Numbered from the stretch's first letter, positions 171 through 32,107 are shown. The stretch: 32,145 nt of DNA from Candidatus Kaiserbacteria bacterium RIFOXYD1_FULL_42_15 (GCA_001783565.1 MFMT01000042.1:29408-61552); one strand, 5' to 3'. The notes: a model not told the origin generated them from the letters alone. Made by a program: numbers and translations.

Positions 171-828
171 CAGTAACAAAAATCAGCTCAACTTTTTAGT
201 TGGGCGATTTTTTGTCTGTGCGCCGGGAGTGAGTGATTTAATATCACTCACGTAAGGATTTGAAGCCCGATTGAGCTGGATTATGAGTGAAGCGAAATAA
301 TCCAGCCAATTGGGGTACTGAACATGTAATGTTCAAATCCTTCCCGACGCACCAAATACCAAAACTCAAGCGACAGCTTGAGTTTTGTTGTATTTGGTAG
401 CGCCGGGAAGGATTTGAAAGACGAAGCCGGGGCCCCTCTGGGCCGGCGAGTCGGGGTCGAGCGAATGAGATATTTTGTGAATGAAATGAAACAAAATATC
501 CATGAGAGTGACCAAATCCTTCCCGACGCACGCGTATAAAAATCAGCTCAAGCTTTTGCTTGGGCGATTTTTATTGCGTGCGCCGGGAGCAAGCAAATAG
601 TTTTGCTTGCGTAAGGATTTGAAAGCCACAGCGATGTAGCTTTGCTACGAGCGAGGCGGGTGAGAAGTGATTTGACATCACTTCGCAAGACCTTGCCCGC
701 TATCTTTGAAGCGAAGCGAAAAGTAACGACAAGGTGTACAGAATTCGTAGAATTCGCGAACACTTTGTAGAATTGAACGTAGTGAAAATTATACTTAGTG
801 ATTCGTGTTCAAATCCTTCCCGGCGCAC
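171..828 (+). repeat. Array of tRNA-Tyr 3'-end copies (3 inverted, 3 direct) separated by palindromic modules
   Basis: Inverted copies at about 217-264, 400-418 and 578-623; direct copies (GTT)CAAATCCTTCCCG(A/G)CGCA at 331-354, 513-531 and 807-828. Confidence 0.93.
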
Positions 829-830
829 TC

Positions 831-865
831 TTGACATAAGTTTAACTTAAGTTAAACTTATGTCA
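831..865 (+). promoter_or_regulatory. Sigma70-type promoter covered by a perfect 34-bp palindrome (likely TA operator)
   Basis: TTGACA 831-836, 16-bp spacer, TAAACT 853-858, ATG at 865; 832-865 TGACATAAGTTTAACTTAAGTTAAACTTATGTCA is its own reverse complement. Confidence 0.75.
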
Positions 866-1131
866 TGAATACAAAAACAGACAAGGATATTGTCGGTCTT
901 AAAGAACTTCGTGAAAACATGGAGACTTATATAGAGCGCGTAAACAAAGGTGAATCAATCACCGTATTTCGTCGTTCTACTCCCCTGTTCCGTATCACTC
1001 CGATCGATGCTGAAGAAGGGGGTTGGGAAACTGTCATCGACTTCACCAAAGAATCAGGTCACGGAGTTCCGATAGAACAACTACTCGCCTCAATGAAAAA
1101 AATGCATGGACAGAAATCAAAAATTTCTTAA
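865..1131 (+). CDS. Phd/YefM-family antitoxin
   Basis: 88 aa; N-terminal 'IVGLKELRENMETYIERVNKGESITVFRRSTPLFRI' fits the Phd DNA-binding pattern; overlaps the downstream toxin-like gene. Confidence 0.8.
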   Translation: MNTKTDKDIVGLKELRENMETYIERVNKGESITVFRRSTPLFRITPIDAEEGGWETVIDFTKESGHGVPIEQLLASMKKMHGQKSKIS

Positions 1132-1348
1132 AAGGCTCAGTAATAAAGAATTTGATGCCGTAGAGCATATTCTACGGAAGATTTTAGTCAGAGACACCTC
1201 TAGTCTTGATATTAAAAAACTATCTAGTTATAAAGATGTGTACCGAGTTCGAATAGGAAGCATTCGTATTATCTTTCTAGACACGGGAAATCATACTGAG
1301 GTTTTAGAAATCAGCAGAAGGAGTGAGAAGACGTATAAAGATTTTTAG
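1106..1348 (+). CDS. RelE/ParE-family toxin
   Basis: 80 aa basic protein with 'IKKL...YRVRIGSIRIIF...VLEISRR', typical of RelE. Confidence 0.85.
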   Translation: MDRNQKFLKRLSNKEFDAVEHILRKILVRDTSSLDIKKLSSYKDVYRVRIGSIRIIFLDTGNHTEVLEISRRSEKTYKDF

Positions 1349-5003: not shown

Positions 5004-5214
5004 AGTCGAATTGTCTTATATTATTTTCACCTCTCTTCACTCAGTAATTATATTTCTTTCAGACACCAAGGGTGACGGTCTGTGACCGATTACTCTATAA
5101 TGCAATATATGGACGTCGCTGTCAAAAAATAGCTGGCCACCGTTGGTAATTAATATTTTATTAACTATAAGGTTCAGATTATTAGTAACTAATAGTGATG
5201 TTTAGAAACGACAT

Positions 5215-5498
5215 GGATTGCCACACTGCGGTTCGCAAAGACGGACGGTGACGTTCATCGTCTTTGCGAGGAGGGAGCCCGCAGGCGAGGGACGTGGCAA
5301 TCCAGGGTGACGGGGCGATGTGGACGGACGATGGCGGGCGTGGATTGCCATGCCTCGCAAAGACGGACGGTGGTGACGGACGTTCTTTGTCTTTGCGAGT
5401 GAGAAAAACATACTATGCTTTTCTCACTCGCAAAGACGCATTGGTGTATATACCAAAAATCAATATAGGTCGTCATTGCGAGCAAAGCGCGGCAATCC
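5215..5498 (+). repeat. Cluster of CGTC-type REP-like palindromic repeats
   Basis: Alternating arms GGATTGCC...TCGCAAAGACG and CGTC(T/A)TTGCGAG...G(T/C)GGCAATCC. Confidence 0.88.
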
Positions 5499-5529
5499 AG
5501 AGTTGGTGTGACGTCACAGATTGCTTCCC

Positions 5530-5612
5530 TACAGATGAACGAATGAGTGTCGTAAAAATAAGACGTAACGTAGTGTAGTTTTATTTTTACGACCGAGTGA
5601 GTGAAATCTGTA
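5530..5612 (+). repeat. Long hairpin with three tandem GA/GA mismatches
   Basis: TACAGAT-GA-AC-GA-AT-GA-G.. 16-bp stem 5549-5564/5578-5593 ..C-GA-GT-GA-GT-GAA-ATCTGTA. Confidence 0.75.
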
Positions 5613-5642
5613 TGTTAATACAGGGACTGTTCAGGTTGTAAG

Positions 5643-8466: not shown

Positions 8467-8847
8467 ATGGAAATAAAACCCATTACTTTTGATAGACATG
8501 ACCGAGCGGCTTCTTTAATTAAAGAAATAGTAGCCACCTTCATTCAACAAGAGGCAAATCCCAATCCTCTTATTACCGTAACTCACGTTACTGTTTCTCC
8601 AGATTATCGAAAAGTGACAGTGTTTTTTACCACCATCCCTGACGGTCGCGAAGAAGATGCTTTAATTTTCCTCAAGCGCAGTGCTAATGAGATGCGCGGA
8701 TTTGTGAAGAAAAAAAGTAGTTTAAGAATTATTCCCCACTTGGAATTCTCAATAGACTACGGCGAACGACATCGCCAACACATCGATGAGATTGCCCACG
8801 AGATTGAGCACAGTGATGCCGACACCCCTACAGAACCAACCACCTAG
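8467..8847 (+). CDS. rbfA: Ribosome-binding factor A
   Basis: 'ITVTHVTVSPDYRKVTVFFT' and 'LRIIPHLEFSID'; directly after infB. Confidence 0.92.
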   Translation: MEIKPITFDRHDRAASLIKEIVATFIQQEANPNPLITVTHVTVSPDYRKVTVFFTTIPDGREEDALIFLKRSANEMRGFVKKKSSLRIIPHLEFSIDYGERHRQHIDEIAHEIEHSDADTPTEPTT

Positions 8848-8874
8848 GACATCCGATGTCCTAGGTGGTTGGTT
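8834..8874. repeat. Palindrome with 20-bp perfect arms overlapping the rbfA stop
   Basis: AACCAACCACCTAGGACATC-C-GATGTCCTAGGTGGTTGGTT. Confidence 0.9.
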
Positions 8875-9329: not shown

Positions 9330-9675
9330 CAATGTAATAGTACGTCAGATTTTTATCTGGCGTACTATTACATTTGCCCCAGGGACTTGAAGAGGTTGCC
9401 TGCTAGATTATGAGCTAGCGAAATAATCTAGCGACAACCTGTACTGAACTCGTAGAGTTCAAGTCCCGCTCCCGGCACAAATTAAAAACTATCATTCTTG
9501 AGAGTTTTTAATTTGTGCCGGGAAGAAAGCAAACTGCTTTGCTTTCGGGCGGGACTTGAAAGGCGGAGCGACGTGAGTTTACGAACAAGCGAGCCAGGGT
9601 CGTGAGCGATATATTTTTAAGGAGTTCACGACTATAAAAATAATCGACTCCTGACCAAGTCCCGCTCCCGGCACA
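9330..9675 (+). repeat. Array of tRNA-Leu(TAA) 3'-end copies (2 inverted, 2 direct)
   Basis: Inverted 9376-9391 (degenerate) and 9514-9560; direct 9457-9479 and 9656-9675 (CAAGTCCCGCTCCCGGCACA). Confidence 0.92.
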
Positions 9676-9751
9676 AAGTATTATTAAGAATATATAGATA
9701 GGTTGTCTAATTTAAATTTATCTTGTACACTTTGCTCTACCAAATATATAT

Positions 9752-9824: not shown

Positions 9825-10107
9825 CAAAGGTAAAGCAAAAACACTATCATAATATGATAGTGTTTTTGTTTTAAAAACTGAACTGCTTCAGTTTTGTGCC
9901 TGTGTGCGAGACGGAGCGATGTTTTTCTGCCCCCTTAGGCAGGAAAATAAGTGAGTCGGGGTAGCGAGTGCTTAGTAAAATAAAGACAAAGTATTTATTT
10001 TGGTTAGCAACTCGTGACCACACAGATACATCTATGTGCTATACATGACATGATTTTGTGACTAAATGATAATGTGTTACACTCTGTCCACACGATTTTG
10101 TGTATCC

Positions 10108-10189: not shown

Positions 10190-10339
10190 CAAAAGAAAAA
10201 CCGTCCCGCAAGGGCGGTTTTTTGACTGCGCGAGAAGTAGTGTGTGGGACACACTACGGGAGGACTTGAAGAGGTTGCCAGCTCTTTTGAAAAAAGAGCG
10301 ACAACCTGTACTGAACTCGTAGAGTTCAAGTCCTCTCTC
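10190..10339 (+). repeat. Terminator-like hairpin, then tRNA-Leu(TAG) 3'-end inverted copy, module and direct copy
   Basis: Hairpin 10196-10223; inverted copy 10227-10270; direct copy GTTCAAGTCCTCTCTC 10324-10339. Confidence 0.9.
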
Positions 10340-10362
10340 CACATTTCCTATATAATAAACAA

Positions 10363-10849: not shown

Positions 10850-11004
10850 CGTCTTTGCGAGTGAGAAAGTCCAGTGGACTTTCGCAAGACCTTGCCAGCT
10901 CTTTTGTAAAAAGAGCGACAAGGTGTACAGTCCCTGTTAAGGGAAAGCGCGGCAATCCACGTCCATCATCGTGTTCGTCTTCGCGAGTCGCAACGTGGCG
11001 ATCC
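10850..11004 (+). repeat. Two CGTC-type arms, the first carrying an inserted three-hairpin module
   Basis: CGTCTTTGCGAG-[10862-10942]-GAAAGCGCGGCAATCC, then CGTCTTCGCGAGTCGCAACGTGGCGATCC. Confidence 0.85.
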
Positions 11005-13873: not shown

Positions 13874-14257
13874 TTATGGAGTAGGTAAACCGGGTATAGT
13901 TGGTACAGTCGTTTGATCACCACCGATTGAGCCGGTAAGAAAGTTAACGATTCCCCATAAACTAAAAATCAATGCAAAACCGATAATCGAATAGATAATT
14001 AAGTTTCTACCTTCTTTTCTTTTCTCAGGGTCGTCACCGCCAACAATAAACATTTTGAAAATACCCCAAACAAACATCAGAAATCCTGCTGCCAGTAGTA
14101 GGGGCAATAAATAGTTTTTAATGAAAGTAGTGGTTCCAGAAAATGGAGCACCTAACAAGGTAGGATTATTTTCCAAAAGCCCAGCTGCACTAACGGTGGA
14201 TGCACCTGCAATCAATAAAAACATGGCTGAAAAAATAAAGAAATAGACGTTTTTCAT
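13874..14257 (-). CDS. Small membrane 'pilin' (TrbC/VirB2-like CPR family)
   Basis: Signal peptide plus 'WGIFKMFIVGGDDPEKRKEGRNLIIYSIIG'. Confidence 0.8.
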   Translation of the reverse strand: MKNVYFFIFSAMFLLIAGASTVSAAGLLENNPTLLGAPFSGTTTFIKNYLLPLLLAAGFLMFVWGIFKMFIVGGDDPEKRKEGRNLIIYSIIGFALIFSLWGIVNFLTGSIGGDQTTVPTIPGLPTP

Positions 14258-14383: not shown

Positions 14384-14638
14384 CGTGGATTGCTTCGCGC
14401 GACTCGCAAAGACGTTTCACTTTGTGTTCGTCTTCGCGAGGAGTGGAGTGGCAACGTGAAAAAGTGATTCAATATCACTTTGCAAGACTAGTTGAGCAGG
14501 TTTGTGAGTGAAACGAAACAAACTGGCCAACTAGTGGACAGTCCCTGTAAGGGAATGACGTGGCGATCCAGGGTGGCATGACGAACGATGTGGATTGCCA
14601 CGTTGCGACTCGCCTGTCTGCGCAGGCAGACAAAGACG
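14384..14638 (+). repeat. Composite CGTC-type element with a 96-bp inserted module
   Basis: Colinear and near-identical to 17268-17427 except for extra 14457-14552. Confidence 0.9.
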
Positions 14639-17267: not shown

Positions 17268-17427
17268 CGTGGATTGCTTCGTTGCGACTCGCAAAGACGT
17301 TTCACTTTGTGTTCGTCTTCGCGAGGAGCGGAGTGGCAACGGAGTGACGTGGCGATCCAGGGTGGCATGACGAACGATTTGGATTGCCACGTTGCGACTC
17401 GCCTGTCTGCGCAGGCAGGCAAAGACG
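17268..17427 (+). repeat. Composite CGTC-type element (empty form)
   Basis: Three arms; near-identical to 14384-14638 without the insert. Confidence 0.9.
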
Positions 17428-21448: not shown

Positions 21449-21561
21449 AATGACAGTAGTATACAAGAAGAGAGCGGAAATAGAAAATAGAATATGGAAA
21501 ATAGTTGAATAGTTTAATAGTTACAGTTGCATGGTTGTATGGTTGCAATTAATGCAACGTT

Positions 21562-21710
21562 GTCTTCGCGAGGAGCGAGCGCACGAGTGACGTGGCGATC
21601 CAGGGTGGCGACGATGACGAACGGTGTGGATTGCCGCGCTGTGGCTCGCCTGTCTGCCATGCCTGCCCTGCATACGCAGGCATGGCATGCAGGGCAGGCA
21701 GGCAAAGACG
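21562..21710 (+). repeat. CGTC-type element with expanded internal palindrome
   Basis: GTCTTCGCGAG...GACGTGGCGATCC and GGATTGCC...CTCG-[54 nt]-CAAAGACG. Confidence 0.85.
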
Positions 21711-25823: not shown

Positions 25824-26602
25824 GGATTGCCTGCCTGCACATGTATAACACCTAACGAGCCAGCAGGTGGGCTTCATGACGACTTGCAAAAACGGTAGTC
25901 TTCGTCATTGCGAGAAGGGTGACCGCAGTCTAATGACGTGGCAAATCCATGACCGTACAGAAACGTGGATTGCTTCGTTGTGACTCGCAAAGACGGGTAC
26001 GAAGAACGACACCCCACCATCGTCTTTGCGAGGAATGAGCTGGCAAGCAAATGACGTGGCAATCCACACCATCACCGTCTTTGAGGAGGGAGCTGGCAAG
26101 CGTGAAAAAGTGACTCAATGTTGTGTAAAATAATAAGCGTAGCGACTATATTTTTCATACATAGAATTTTTTATCCTTAATAAAAATTCTTGCACTTTGC
26201 AGCCAACTTGAGCTGGTTTGTACCCACCTTTAGCTGCGAGCAAAGCGTGGCAGGAAATAAAATAGCCAATGAGTGGACAGTCCCTGTTAAGGTGAGAAAT
26301 GTCTGGGTGAGAAAGTCCAGTGGACTTTCTCAAGAGGTTGCCTACTATTTTGCAAAAATAGCGTCAACCTGAACAGCTTCTGTATAGAAGACATTTCGCA
26401 GCCACATTGAGCTAGTTTTACCCACCTTTAGCTGCGAGCGAAGCGTGGCAGGAAATAAAGTAGCCAATGAGTGGACAGTCCCTGTTAAGGTGAGAAAAGC
26501 ATGGGATGCTTTTCGCAAGACTCATTGAGGGATTTTGTGAGTGCAACTAAACAAAATACCCAATGAGTGGACAGTCCCTGTAAGGGAGCAACGTGGTGAT
26601 CC
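25824..26602 (+). repeat. Large composite CGTC-type repeat cluster with tandem and nested modules
   Basis: Multiple CGTC arms; about 100-bp direct repeat 26195-26299/26395-26498; CAATGAGTGGACAGTCCCTGT three times. Confidence 0.92.
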
Positions 26603-26780
26603 AGGATAATTACTGAGTGTATTGTTTCTTGAAACCTTTAGCTACCTCTTAAACGAAAGGTGGTTTTTGGGGTGGGGTACTAGGAAGTTTCTTTGGCCCA
26701 GAAATAGTCAAGAATTAATTAGTATGGGTAATTTGTTACCTTGCACTTTTTCTTCAGGAATGCTATGCTCTTGCCCACAT

Positions 26781-30293: not shown

Positions 30294-30453
30294 GTGCAGC
30301 GGGGCGTAGCGGAATGACACAGCAATCTAGAGTGGCGATGTGGATTACCGCATTGTGACTCGCCTGTCTGCGCAGGCAGGCAAAGACGCGGGGGGTGTAA
30401 TCCACCATCGTCTTCGCGAGGAATGAGCTGGCAAGCGAATGACGTGGCGATCC
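30294..30453 (+). repeat. CGTC-type repeat cluster
   Basis: GGATTACC...GACTCGCCTGTCTGCGCAGGCAGGCAAAGACG and CGTCTTCGCGAGGAATGAGCTGGCAAGCGAATGACGTGGCGATCC. Confidence 0.85.
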
Positions 30454-30580
30454 AGGACGACTACGTGACAATCTATATTGACTACCGGTAGCATTAAAAG
30501 TGGCAAGGTCATACACCACCATTGTTTTTTATGTTATGCTGTTCCTTGTTAAATAAAAATAAGCAACCTTTTGAAATTTT

Positions 30581-31951: not shown

Positions 31952-32107
31952 CAGTGAATGAAATGAACGAAGGAAGAGGAGGTTGCAGCATTTTGAAAAA
32001 ATGCGTAGCAAGATTTGAAGCCCGATTGAGCTAGATTATGAGCTTGCGAAATAATCTAGCCAATTGGGGTACTGAACATGTAATGTTCAAATCCCTCCTC
32101 TTCCGCA
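31952..32107 (+). repeat. tRNA-Ser 3'-end inverted copy, module and direct copy
   Basis: Interrupted inverted copy 31972-32019; module 32020-32084; direct copy GTTCAAATCCCTCCTCTTCCGCA 32085-32107. Confidence 0.92.

Follow-up and report, generated by a model that had tools for sequence, protein, structure and literature searches.

A family of short three-hairpin modules inserted at base-matched sites in the repeats of a Candidatus Kaiserbacteria genome: a probable mobile element

Results

The locus and its filled and empty sites

Here we examine a stretch of 32,145 nucleotides (nt) from Candidatus Kaiserbacteria bacterium RIFOXYD1_FULL_42_15, referred to at its full length as the window (contig C42:29408-61552 of a genome of 757 kb in 43 contigs, 41.7% G+C and 84% complete), and within it a three-hairpin module of 80-100 nt that is probably a mobile element assisted in its insertion by a short guide. 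The copy at 14457-14552 is intergenic, having as one neighbor an open reading frame (ORF) that resembles a type IV secretion system pilin (13874-14257, minus strand) and as the other a small ORF without a family match, with gyrA and a methyltransferase gene further on. It splits a CGTC-type repetitive extragenic palindrome (REP) that is present intact elsewhere in the window, and a second copy splits a smaller REP. The features concerned are listed below, with ^ marking the point of insertion here and throughout.

14457..14552, + strand: module of 96 nt with five empty paralogues at its boundary and a covariance-model match at 14479-14557; it comprises hairpin 1 (hp1, TGAAAAAGTGATT..ATCACTTTGC), AAG, stem 2 (ACTAGTTG/CAACTAGT) around an inner hairpin, GGACAG, and hairpin 3 (hp3) up to the first base of its 3' arm
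14429..14456, + strand: left half of the split CGTC-type REP of the 45-nt class, CGTCTTCGCGAGGAGTGGAGTGGCAACG, as compared with the intact unit at 17314-17359
14553..14570, + strand: right half of the split REP, GAATGACGTGGCGATCCA
17314..17359, + strand: intact REP paralogue, the empty site, CGTCTTCGCGAGGAGCGGAGTGGCAACG^GAGTGACGTGGCGATCCA
10862..10942, + strand: second module, 81 nt, of the ACCTTG/CAAGGT subfamily (covariance model 88.8 bits, E 6e-25)
5471..5499, + strand: intact REP of 29 nt, which corresponds as the empty site to 10850-10959 but for one junction substitution

An earlier note on this DNA had claimed that two pairs of sites differ by the presence of a module, and both pairs are as it described, apart from the single junction substitution in the second. 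At the first site GGCAACG (14450-14456) is followed by the 96-nt insert, which spans TGAAAAAG to TGTAAGG, and GAATGACG begins at 14553; the empty paralogue reads GGCAACG^GAGTGACG at approximately 17335-17349. The left flanks are 98% identical over 58 nt (14399-14456 versus 17284-17341) and the right flanks 96% over 90 nt (14549-14638 versus 17338-17427); the repeat cluster at 17268-17427 is the uninterrupted counterpart of the one with the split repeat at 14429-14570. The first two bases of the right REP half, GA, pair with TC of the module and close hp3. The second insert sits between GCGAG and GAAAGCGCGGCAATCC in a REP of the 28-29-nt class (halves 10850-10861 and 10943-10959), the empty counterpart reading GCGAG^CAAAGCGCGGCAATCC; the two units differ by one base at the junction (C versus G) and in the head (CGTCATT versus CGTCTTT).

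A module family with exact ends and matched dinucleotides

The modules share a grammar, of which the 5' half reads G^TGA(G/A)(G/A)A-hp1-(T)CGC, AAG, stem 2, inner hairpin, stem 2' and the 3' half G(T/G/A)AC(A/T)G followed by hp3 (N1N2N3CT-gta-AGN3'N2'N1'). The grammar proposed in the earlier note was upheld in two scans of the whole genome: a structural regular expression (AAG, a 6-8-nt stem, a loop of 8 to ~90 nt, the stem complement and G.AC.G) gave 50 matches, two of them evident false positives, while a covariance model of the module core, built from 11 copies and applied at E<=0.01, gave 73 matches with a best value of 9e-25.

For the mapping of ends we retained 66 of these 73 matches, dropping two partial and four weak ones and one at a contig end, and joined the 11-nt left and 11-nt right flanks at nearby offsets to seek the joined sequence genome-wide with one mismatch allowed. 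Both ends were recognizable in 45 of the 66 matches, and at least one empty paralogue was found for 23 of these 45. The best-supported cut was the same in every context, the insert running from the T of TGAG to N3' of hp3, with an ambiguity of 1 nt (one base leftward), since a G stands before the insert and is usually its last base too; insertion after a G, as previously claimed, is therefore common to all mapped contexts. These contexts include REPs after GCGAG (28-nt), after CGCACG (27-nt) and after GGCAACG (45-nt), the hp1 loop of another module (GTCTGGG^AGACA, with three exact empties), positions immediately 5' of a module, and the interior of 'type 2' units linked to tRNA genes. The claim that targets are not duplicated stood in part: duplication is absent at the 23 mapped sites and in REP and module contexts, whereas in unique genes and tRNAs the module comes with a long duplication of the gene end. 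Since one 80-100-nt sequence with identical relative ends occurs in six unrelated hosts, and since empty hosts far outnumber filled ones (~90 REP units of 27-29 nt and 50 of 44-46 nt), the polymorphism is one of insertion rather than deletion. Thus neither of the two outcomes named in advance as contrary to the proposal was found: the ends are not ragged, and the short forms, with at least six unrelated hosts and empties in the majority, are not deletions.

The two target bases that follow the cut complement N2N1 of the inserted module, the pairs found being GA, AA, AG, TG and CG; where the downstream module starts with CGAG instead of TGAG, the guide is correspondingly CG and not CA. The genomes analyzed provide 76 distinct hp3-plus-flank contexts; the two outer hp3 pairs are both Watson-Crick in 70 of them, only one is in 5 and neither in 1, and ten dinucleotide combinations are represented. 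When flanks were shuffled (1000 shuffles), both pairs formed in a mean of 13.8 and a maximum of 24 of the 76. That the terminal hairpin is completed by bases of the target, another element of the original proposal, is supported by the empty-site mapping, with two related copies that depart from it.

Fold, covariation and the folding strand

Folded as single-stranded DNA, the 99 nt at 14456-14554 form exactly three hairpins (-20.6 kcal/mol, z -5.2; z -5.8 for the complementary strand), and the copy at 10861-10944, folded as RNA, likewise forms three (z -4.7). Covariation was assessed in 101 model-aligned copies from this and other genomes, 97 of them distinct, in which 97.3% of cells are paired, all 14 of 14 modelled pairs show double-sided changes, and there are 213 compensatory cells where shuffles give 41 +/- 5. 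The copies were aligned by fitting them to the covariance model, but the helices are ungapped and slid controls lie far lower, at no more than 55% paired. The base pairs are distributed as follows.

Stem 2: 573 Watson-Crick, 0 G·T, 0 A·C
Inner hairpin: 686 Watson-Crick, 32 G·T, 4 A·C
hp1: 468 Watson-Crick, 6 G·T, 0 A·C

The excess of G·T over A·C identifies the GTGAG-sense strand as the folded species, whether RNA or single-stranded DNA. The middle stem had been described as fully covarying, which the covariation analysis bears out, and its total absence of wobble pairs suggests that stem 2 varies as discrete subfamily types (ACCTTG, AGGTTG, ACTCATTG, ACTAGTTG, ACTCGC and others) and not by stepwise drift.

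Taxonomic spread

By DNA similarity, 17 of 24 genomes sampled from the same genus carry the module, as do 4 of 16 from other families of the order, while an even draw across the phylum recovered it in 1 of 150 other genomes (under strict filters, with 34 candidates scored per genome). An exact scan of 185,579 species genomes for 30 specified bases of the ACCTTG subfamily returned 44 loci, labelled Paceibacteria, Kaiser-, Nomura-, Zambryskii- or Yonathbacteria, 'Saccharibacteria' or Patescibacteria, except for one 'Acidimicrobiales' metagenome-assembled genome (MAG) and three labelled only 'bacterium'. Two module patterns had no match in viral contigs. In Rfam 15 only tRNAs reach threshold and the module has no family match, the sub-threshold rows of two scans lying far under gathering scores and belonging mostly to families of miRNA precursors. 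As far as searched, the family is confined to the Patescibacteria, or candidate phyla radiation (CPR), and its patchy taxonomic spread fits a mobile element. Genes of the relatives are ~72-80% identical in DNA, and their intergenic regions are not alignable between genomes.

The host repeat and nesting

The motif GTC[TAC]T[TC]GCGA of the host repeat occurs 241 times genome-wide, in units of 27-29 nt (n=90), 44-46 nt (n=50), 51-53 nt (n=9) and 63-65 nt (n=3), beyond which there is a tail of longer, filled units; a further 32 heads have no tail inside 450 nt. Examples in the window are found at 5252-5304, 17314-17359, 21550-21613, 25896-26066 and 30402-30454. According to Di Nocera et al. 2013 (PMC3733652), CGTC-tagged REPs have no dedicated transposase and some lie inside other palindromes; with the superfamily as described there our host repeat shares the CGTC head, the short stem, the CCA tail and dimers in opposite orientation, and it fits the definition of a REP.

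The larger REP classes look like smaller units with extra small hairpins inserted, such as the CCTGCCTGCGCAGGCAGG hairpin. A piece of ~30 nt, (C)CGCCTTTAGCTGCGAGCGAAGCGCGGCAGG, in the middle of units of the 51-53-nt class constitutes a second, smaller nested insert, which also replaces the inner-hairpin loop of the module (window 26225-26255 and 26425-26455, and on contigs C10, C28, C32 and C38). A third kind, an AT-rich piece of ~75-85 nt (TGTGTAAAATAAT..AATAAAAATTCTTG), occupies the loops of hp1-type hairpins (window 26122-26196; C5, after tRNA-Ser(tga); C42:23992-24227; C28; C41). With inserts inside REP units and modules alike, the genome resembles a stack of nested hairpin elements.

Further copies of the module in the window are listed below; the last three belong to a group of four modules that fill a single REP (26072-26603).

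661..753, + strand: module within a 'type 2' unit downstream of tRNA-Tyr, with hp3 GAATTC-gta-GAATTC (covariance match 682-757); the empty form of this type of host unit is at 9540-9655
9385..9462, + strand: module core, AGGTTG/CAACCT, GTACTG, hp3 AACTC-gta-GAGTT (covariance model 54.3 bits), adjoining, at the T loop, a second copy of the tRNA-Leu(taa) 3' end
10264..10329, + strand: AGGTTG-type core downstream of tRNA-Leu(tag) (76 bits), adjoining GTTCAAGTCCTCTCTC, a copy of the tRNA 3' end
26103..26292, + strand: degenerate module read by eye and unreported by the covariance model, the first of the four, with two nested inserts, one AT-rich (~75 nt) in the hp1 loop and one of 30 nt (CACCTTTAGCTGCGAGCAAAGCGTGGCAGG) in the inner-hairpin loop
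26308..26388, + strand: module nested in the hp1 loop of another (76.6 bits; three exact empty hp1 loops, GTCTGGGAGACATTT), the outer module being 26293-26307 plus 26389-26490 and the junctions GTCTGGG^TGAG.. and ..TATAGA^AGACATTT
26491..26585, + strand: module of the ACTCATTG/CAATGAGT subfamily (covariance match 26512-26590), after which the host REP resumes with its right half, GAGCAACGTGGTGATCCA

Duplicated gene ends and tRNA arrays

Outside the repeats, modules are associated with duplicated gene ends. At 15 of the 44 loci in other genomes a direct repeat of 10-43 nt stops exactly at the first base of the module and recurs 27-197 nt after ACAG, where it runs into the intact gene. What is repeated is the 5' end of GH1-like genes (MKKTFPEGFYWG), of MsrA-like genes (..GGCFWG) or of other ORFs, or else a piece of tRNA-fMet, tRNA-Tyr or a 5S rRNA; the names GH1, MsrA, 5S and nusA are readings by eye of the sequence or of the translated N-terminus. 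One locus (L034) comprises three identical units in tandem with a period of 160 nt. At two others (L066 and L047) the truncated copy runs 14-16 nt beyond the insertion point; the module there is a precise insertion into an incomplete second copy of the gene end. Upstream of nusA in the present genome (C22:770-900) the module likewise lies in a truncated duplicate, and L036 shows the same place.

Loci with a module directly after a truncated duplicate of a 5' end were read at L027, L032, L034, L038, L039, L055, L066 and L070, and further at L033, L043, L044, L053 and L054. The same sites recur in different lineages, namely ..TGGGG^ in GH1-like and MsrA-like genes and AGCGGGG^ in tRNA-fMet.

In the Kaiserbacteria genome itself, 16 of 37 tRNA genes carry one to three downstream units of 148-378 nt, and these arrays contain 20 copies of the last 17 nt of the tRNA, each with at most two mismatches. 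In most units a terminator-like palindrome is combined with an antisense tRNA 3' end (often split by an hp1-like hairpin), with either a module core or a 'type 2' structure of ~100 nt, and with a tRNA 3' end in sense orientation. The sense copy starts in the T loop and extends 0-2 nt past the tRNA 3' end in 19 of 20 cases; CCA is present in 5 of the 20 downstream copies where the gene copy is without it. Only 3 of the 37 tRNA genes encode CCA, most reading discriminator-C-A. These facts keep alive both an RNA-mediated route and a route of nick-primed snap-back replication, which are weighed in the Discussion.

Arrays were located at window 172-828, 9331-9678, 10191-10340 and 31953-32106, and on C1, C5, C8, C9, C26 and C38. 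The 'type 2' core (AAAG, a variable hairpin and a long G·T-rich hairpin, GGGTCG..ACTTAGTAG..TACTTAGTGA..GTGAC) abuts C56 of the duplicated T loop and has no Rfam match. In distant CPR MAGs its AGAAAGCAAACTGCTTTGCTTTC hairpin recurs almost unchanged. Such cores lie at window 395-530, 9540-9678 and, in degenerate form, 9826-10020, and in other genomes at L035, L048, L059 and L067.

Candidate enzymes

The genome contains five matches to Y1_Tnp, comprising one IS200-like TnpA (141 aa) and four Y1 proteins of 209-231 aa that resemble REP-associated tyrosine transposases (RAYT) and carry HUH motifs. A perfect palindrome at window 8834-8874 (CCTAGGACATC-GATGTCCTAGG) is the same as that bracketing the 222-aa RAYT-like gene (C7:5960-6628); the other RAYT-like genes, on C11, C23 and C41, each have their own flanking palindrome. 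Neither TnpB nor Cas1 nor a reverse transcriptase (RT) was found in this 84%-complete genome. Its sole tyrosine recombinase is Xer-like, scoring 182 bits with the XerD/XerC models and 71.7 bits with the integron-integrase model, for which the cut-off is 265. There are two IS110-family genes, and the non-coding ends of both loci hold no module-like sequence.

Among relatives, the three richest in modules (G001, G018 and G024) each possess an RT, while four further RT-positive genomes (G014, G025, G027 and G031) have no module match. From ORF translations, the RT of G001 (L094, G001:C18) stands beside what looks like an Avd-like four-helix-bundle ORF and a duplicated coding stretch, and we judge it to be that of a diversity-generating retroelement (DGR). 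An RT as the main mobilizer was rejected, given that none was found in the 84%-complete genome, the DGR-type enzyme in the relative inspected and the module-free relatives that are RT-positive.

Discussion

In this work we find a family of modules with a covarying, strand-asymmetric fold, exact ends, nesting and dinucleotides matched to their targets, and we consider it probable that the module is a guide-assisted mobile hairpin element of CPR bacteria, 80-100 nt long and protein-less. In the mechanism we propose, the GTGAG-sense single strand would fold into hp1 (TGAGAA..TTCGC), stem 2 with its inner hairpin, and hp3, and would enter other hairpin-forming sequences in their apical part, exactly behind a G and without duplicating the target. 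Its targets would be CGTC-type REPs, hp1 loops, sites just 5' of modules, tRNA-linked units and the T loop of tRNAs. The 5' arm of hp3 may serve as a short guide, N2N1 pairing with the two bases 3' of the cut, or else as a filter on which copies persist. Cutting and joining of the single-stranded DNA could be carried out by a trans-acting nuclease of the HUH/Y1 type that recognizes hp3 with its conserved CTGTAAG loop region. As to this chemistry, we infer it only tentatively: it is the single most likely one, favored by the single-strand folding, the hairpins at both ends, the lack of duplication, the short paired guide and the presence of Y1 enzymes, and we regard it as possible and not as probable.

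Several observations weigh against this account. The pairing rule has its exceptions in two related copies (26280-26292 and 26479-26490), where TG follows although GA would pair, and many filled REPs are 92-99% identical with their flanks included, so that some 'insertions' are copied filled repeats and the copies outnumber the independent events. Modules in unique genes and tRNAs come with 10-45 nt of the gene end in duplicate, something that a simple duplication-free cut-and-paste would not predict. A long, ORF-bearing version, with hp1 and stem 2 parted from their partners by 0.1-4 kb, was found neither in the genome nor in L010-L070. No enzyme family is as yet linked to the module: the terminal hairpins of the IS200-like element on C21 are unrelated to it, the four RAYT-like genes are each bracketed by a palindrome of their own and not by the module or the host REP, and among 40 relatives 15 have both module and Y1, 6 the module only, 10 Y1 only and 9 neither, an odds ratio of ~2.3 in genomes that are kin and not independent. 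Relative to crudely called flanking ORFs, orientation could be assessed for 67 of the 73 matches, of which 15 are in the same sense as both neighbors, 15 are opposite to both, 19 have neighbors of mixed orientation and 18 lie at contig ends. Relative to local GC skew, modules divide 30 versus 37 (and REPs 125 versus 116), which is unlike the lagging-strand preference predicted for an IS200/IS605-like element, although GC skew on fragmented contigs is a weak proxy. The link to IS200/IS605 chemistry drawn in the earlier note therefore found no support in the ends of the resident element and no clear support in co-occurrence or in orientation, and the analogy is further strained in that the module pairs with its 3' flank whereas IS608 pairs with the 5' flank.

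Among other explanations for the same data, an RNA-mediated route appears unlikely. Here an intron-like or otherwise RNA-borne module would join RNAs at G^NN by means of hp3 and enter DNA by reverse transcription or RNA-templated repair, which would explain why duplicated gene pieces end at RNA termini. In its favor, pairs of the G·U type are tolerated on the sense strand only. The repeat of a downstream gene or tRNA 5' end that stops exactly at the module start (15 of 44 loci) would fit such a route, several of these repeats beginning near the start codon while others reach ~27 nt upstream, as would the tRNA pieces that stop at the tRNA 3' end (19 of 20, within 0-2 nt), the CCA on 5 of 20, the GTGAG start, the co-orientation of module and gene in all gene and tRNA cases, and the RT in each of the three relatives with most copies. 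However, the genome at hand, 84% complete, yielded no RT, that of G001 was judged DGR-type, four RT-positive relatives have no module match, and modules lie in both orientations relative to flanking ORFs. Moreover, a stem 2 with 573 Watson-Crick pairs and no G·U would be unusual for an RNA helix under point mutation, and the antisense copies of tRNA ends mirror the 3' flank of the gene and not CCA. Somewhat less likely still is a recombinase, either a tyrosine recombinase acting on folded strands in the manner of attC or an IS110-type enzyme with a bridge RNA, for which the module would be a minimal cassette. Integrons cross over at G^T in the core site, and as a G both precedes and ends the module its crossover could be G^T too; in tRNA contexts a stretch of 20 nt antisense to the target looks guide-like before the module, two IS110-family genes are present, and the duplicated tRNA 3' ends resemble the attL and attR of integrative elements. 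Against this, the only tyrosine recombinase is Xer-like, the IS110 ends are without module-like sequence, and a fixed attP would leave unexplained why every array matches the particular tRNA that it follows.

It is very improbable that the module is an immobile, functional structured RNA (a terminator, an attenuator or a hairpin sequestering the ribosome-binding site) that spread passively with its host repeats. Its structure is strongly conserved, its sequence motifs recur across distant CPR lineages, and at several genes elsewhere the hp3 3' arm reads AAGGAG or AAGAAG ~10 nt before the start codon; but ~70 copies in 757 kb in both orientations, nesting in loops, tandem units (L034), a patchy taxonomic spread and no Rfam match besides tRNAs speak for a different nature. 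That the short forms are deletions, or that the whole pattern is an artefact of repeat assembly, is barely credible. The groundwater metagenomes hold sequence near-identical to the window, but the Logan contigs of four other groundwater runs (X3, X5, X7 and X8) all end at repeats and none spans a module, such that the local assembly is not independently bridged. Nevertheless the ends are identical relative to one another in hosts as unrelated as three REP size classes at three positions, hp1 loops, type-2 units and gene 5' ends, and the 44 loci come from MAGs assembled by different groups.

For the guide-assisted element that we favor, the closest known counterparts in style, though not demonstrably in ancestry, are IS200/IS605-derived and REP-type elements. 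Protein-less IS200/IS605 derivatives such as the palindrome-associated transposable elements (PATEs) and the cyanobacterial 'Nezha' are short, carry subterminal hairpins and insert without target duplication. In the IS608 model a few bases of the 5' flank pair with an internal guide beside a hairpin, and folding is strand-specific. The module is like PATEs in size, lack of protein, hairpins, guide pairing and strand-specific folding, and in REP and module contexts also in the absence of target duplication. It is unlike them in that the paired flank is 3' and not 5', the upstream requirement is a single G instead of a tetra- or pentanucleotide, the ends differ from those of the resident IS200-like element, no strand bias is seen, and insertions in genes and tRNAs carry long duplications. 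Modular, protein-less hairpin elements that nest are also known as small nested repeats in cyanobacteria, BOX in pneumococci and the palindromic elements of Rickettsia, the mobilizing enzyme being unknown, and Elhai et al. in 2008 reportedly described very small nested repeats of cyanobacteria. The likeness of the module to these is one of description, and none of them is known to have a terminal hairpin completed by the target with matched dinucleotides, or arrays of tRNA ends. In keeping the host gene by a duplicated end and in forming serial arrays, the tRNA arrays resemble integrative elements and free-standing homing-endonuclease genes; they differ from these in being 150-380 nt long and gene-less, in matching their own tRNA and in carrying an antisense copy of its end. 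At the level of abstracts, a literature search returned no account of the module or of tRNA-end arrays in CPR, which is not proof that they are unpublished.

Assignment of the module to several other known classes was considered and rejected. REPs and REPINs are palindromes of 20-40 bp headed by GTAG or CGTC, often found as inverted pairs around a RAYT gene; the module, at 80-100 nt, has neither head, forms its three hairpins separately and is a guest where these are hosts. A miniature inverted-repeat element of a DDE transposon, which would have terminal inverted repeats and a target duplication of fixed length, is discounted by termini that are not inverted repeats (TGAGAA.. and ..CTGTAAGG) and by 23 sites without duplication. 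Group II introns, including class C with its hairpin targets, are six-domain ribozymes several hundred nt long with a domain V and usually an RT ORF; the module would share only the GTGAG start, measuring 80-100 nt with no Rfam group II match and no RT found in the genome. An attC site is one long imperfect hairpin with a GTTRRRY core, used by an integron integrase, which does not fit three hairpins in series and a sole tyrosine recombinase that is Xer-like (71.7 versus 265 bits). In IS110/IS1111 elements the bridge RNA or seekRNA is encoded at the non-coding end, beside a DEDD recombinase, and the flanks of the two IS110 genes contain no module-like sequence that would suggest such a guide RNA.

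More broadly, there is a doubtful suggestion, to which we give slightly more credit than to an RNA-mediated route, that one undescribed class of self-guided CPR hairpin elements comprises the module together with the 'type 2' tRNA-linked units and the smaller nested inserts. In such a class the guide would comprise 2-3 nt in hp3, or ~20 nt antisense in tRNA contexts, and would direct nicking to the base of hairpin loops, among them the T loop of tRNA genes, which is universally conserved. Nick-primed strand displacement with snap-back at the palindrome could then generate the alternating sense and antisense copies of gene ends, and essential genes could be entered without being killed. An RNA-templated variant of this scheme is hinted at by the 5 copies of 20 that read CCA and by the coincidence of duplication ends with RNA termini.

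These findings have implications for how CPR genomes are read. The genomes of CPR bacteria (Patescibacteria) are tiny (0.6-1.2 Mb), yet here ~1% of the DNA is module, in addition to ~240 REP-like units. With an insertion point readable from a guide of 2 nt, the module offers a compact case of base-pair-guided DNA insertion, a process of current interest through IS200/IS605, TnpB and bridge RNAs. Furthermore, an element that tolerates insertion in tRNA, 5S rRNA and protein genes by duplicating gene ends has consequences for annotation: where a CPR MAG shows a truncated gene start or an extra tRNA 3' end, this may be the footprint of such an element and not an assembly error, and the elements may also explain intergenic breaks in such assemblies.

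Additional observations

Directly after the tRNA-Tyr array, at window 865-1348, lie two small overlapping ORFs of 88 and 80 aa, a pair that looks, by its layout, like a toxin-antitoxin pair. In the Logan contigs the sole solid joint is in run X8, from a related groundwater population, where window 5135-5642, a repeat-rich intergenic stretch of 508 nt, is replaced by 123 other letters, while the other joints, with sides of no more than 35 nt, probably derive from repeats; the replacement in X8 indicates that intergenic repeat regions turn over between close strains.

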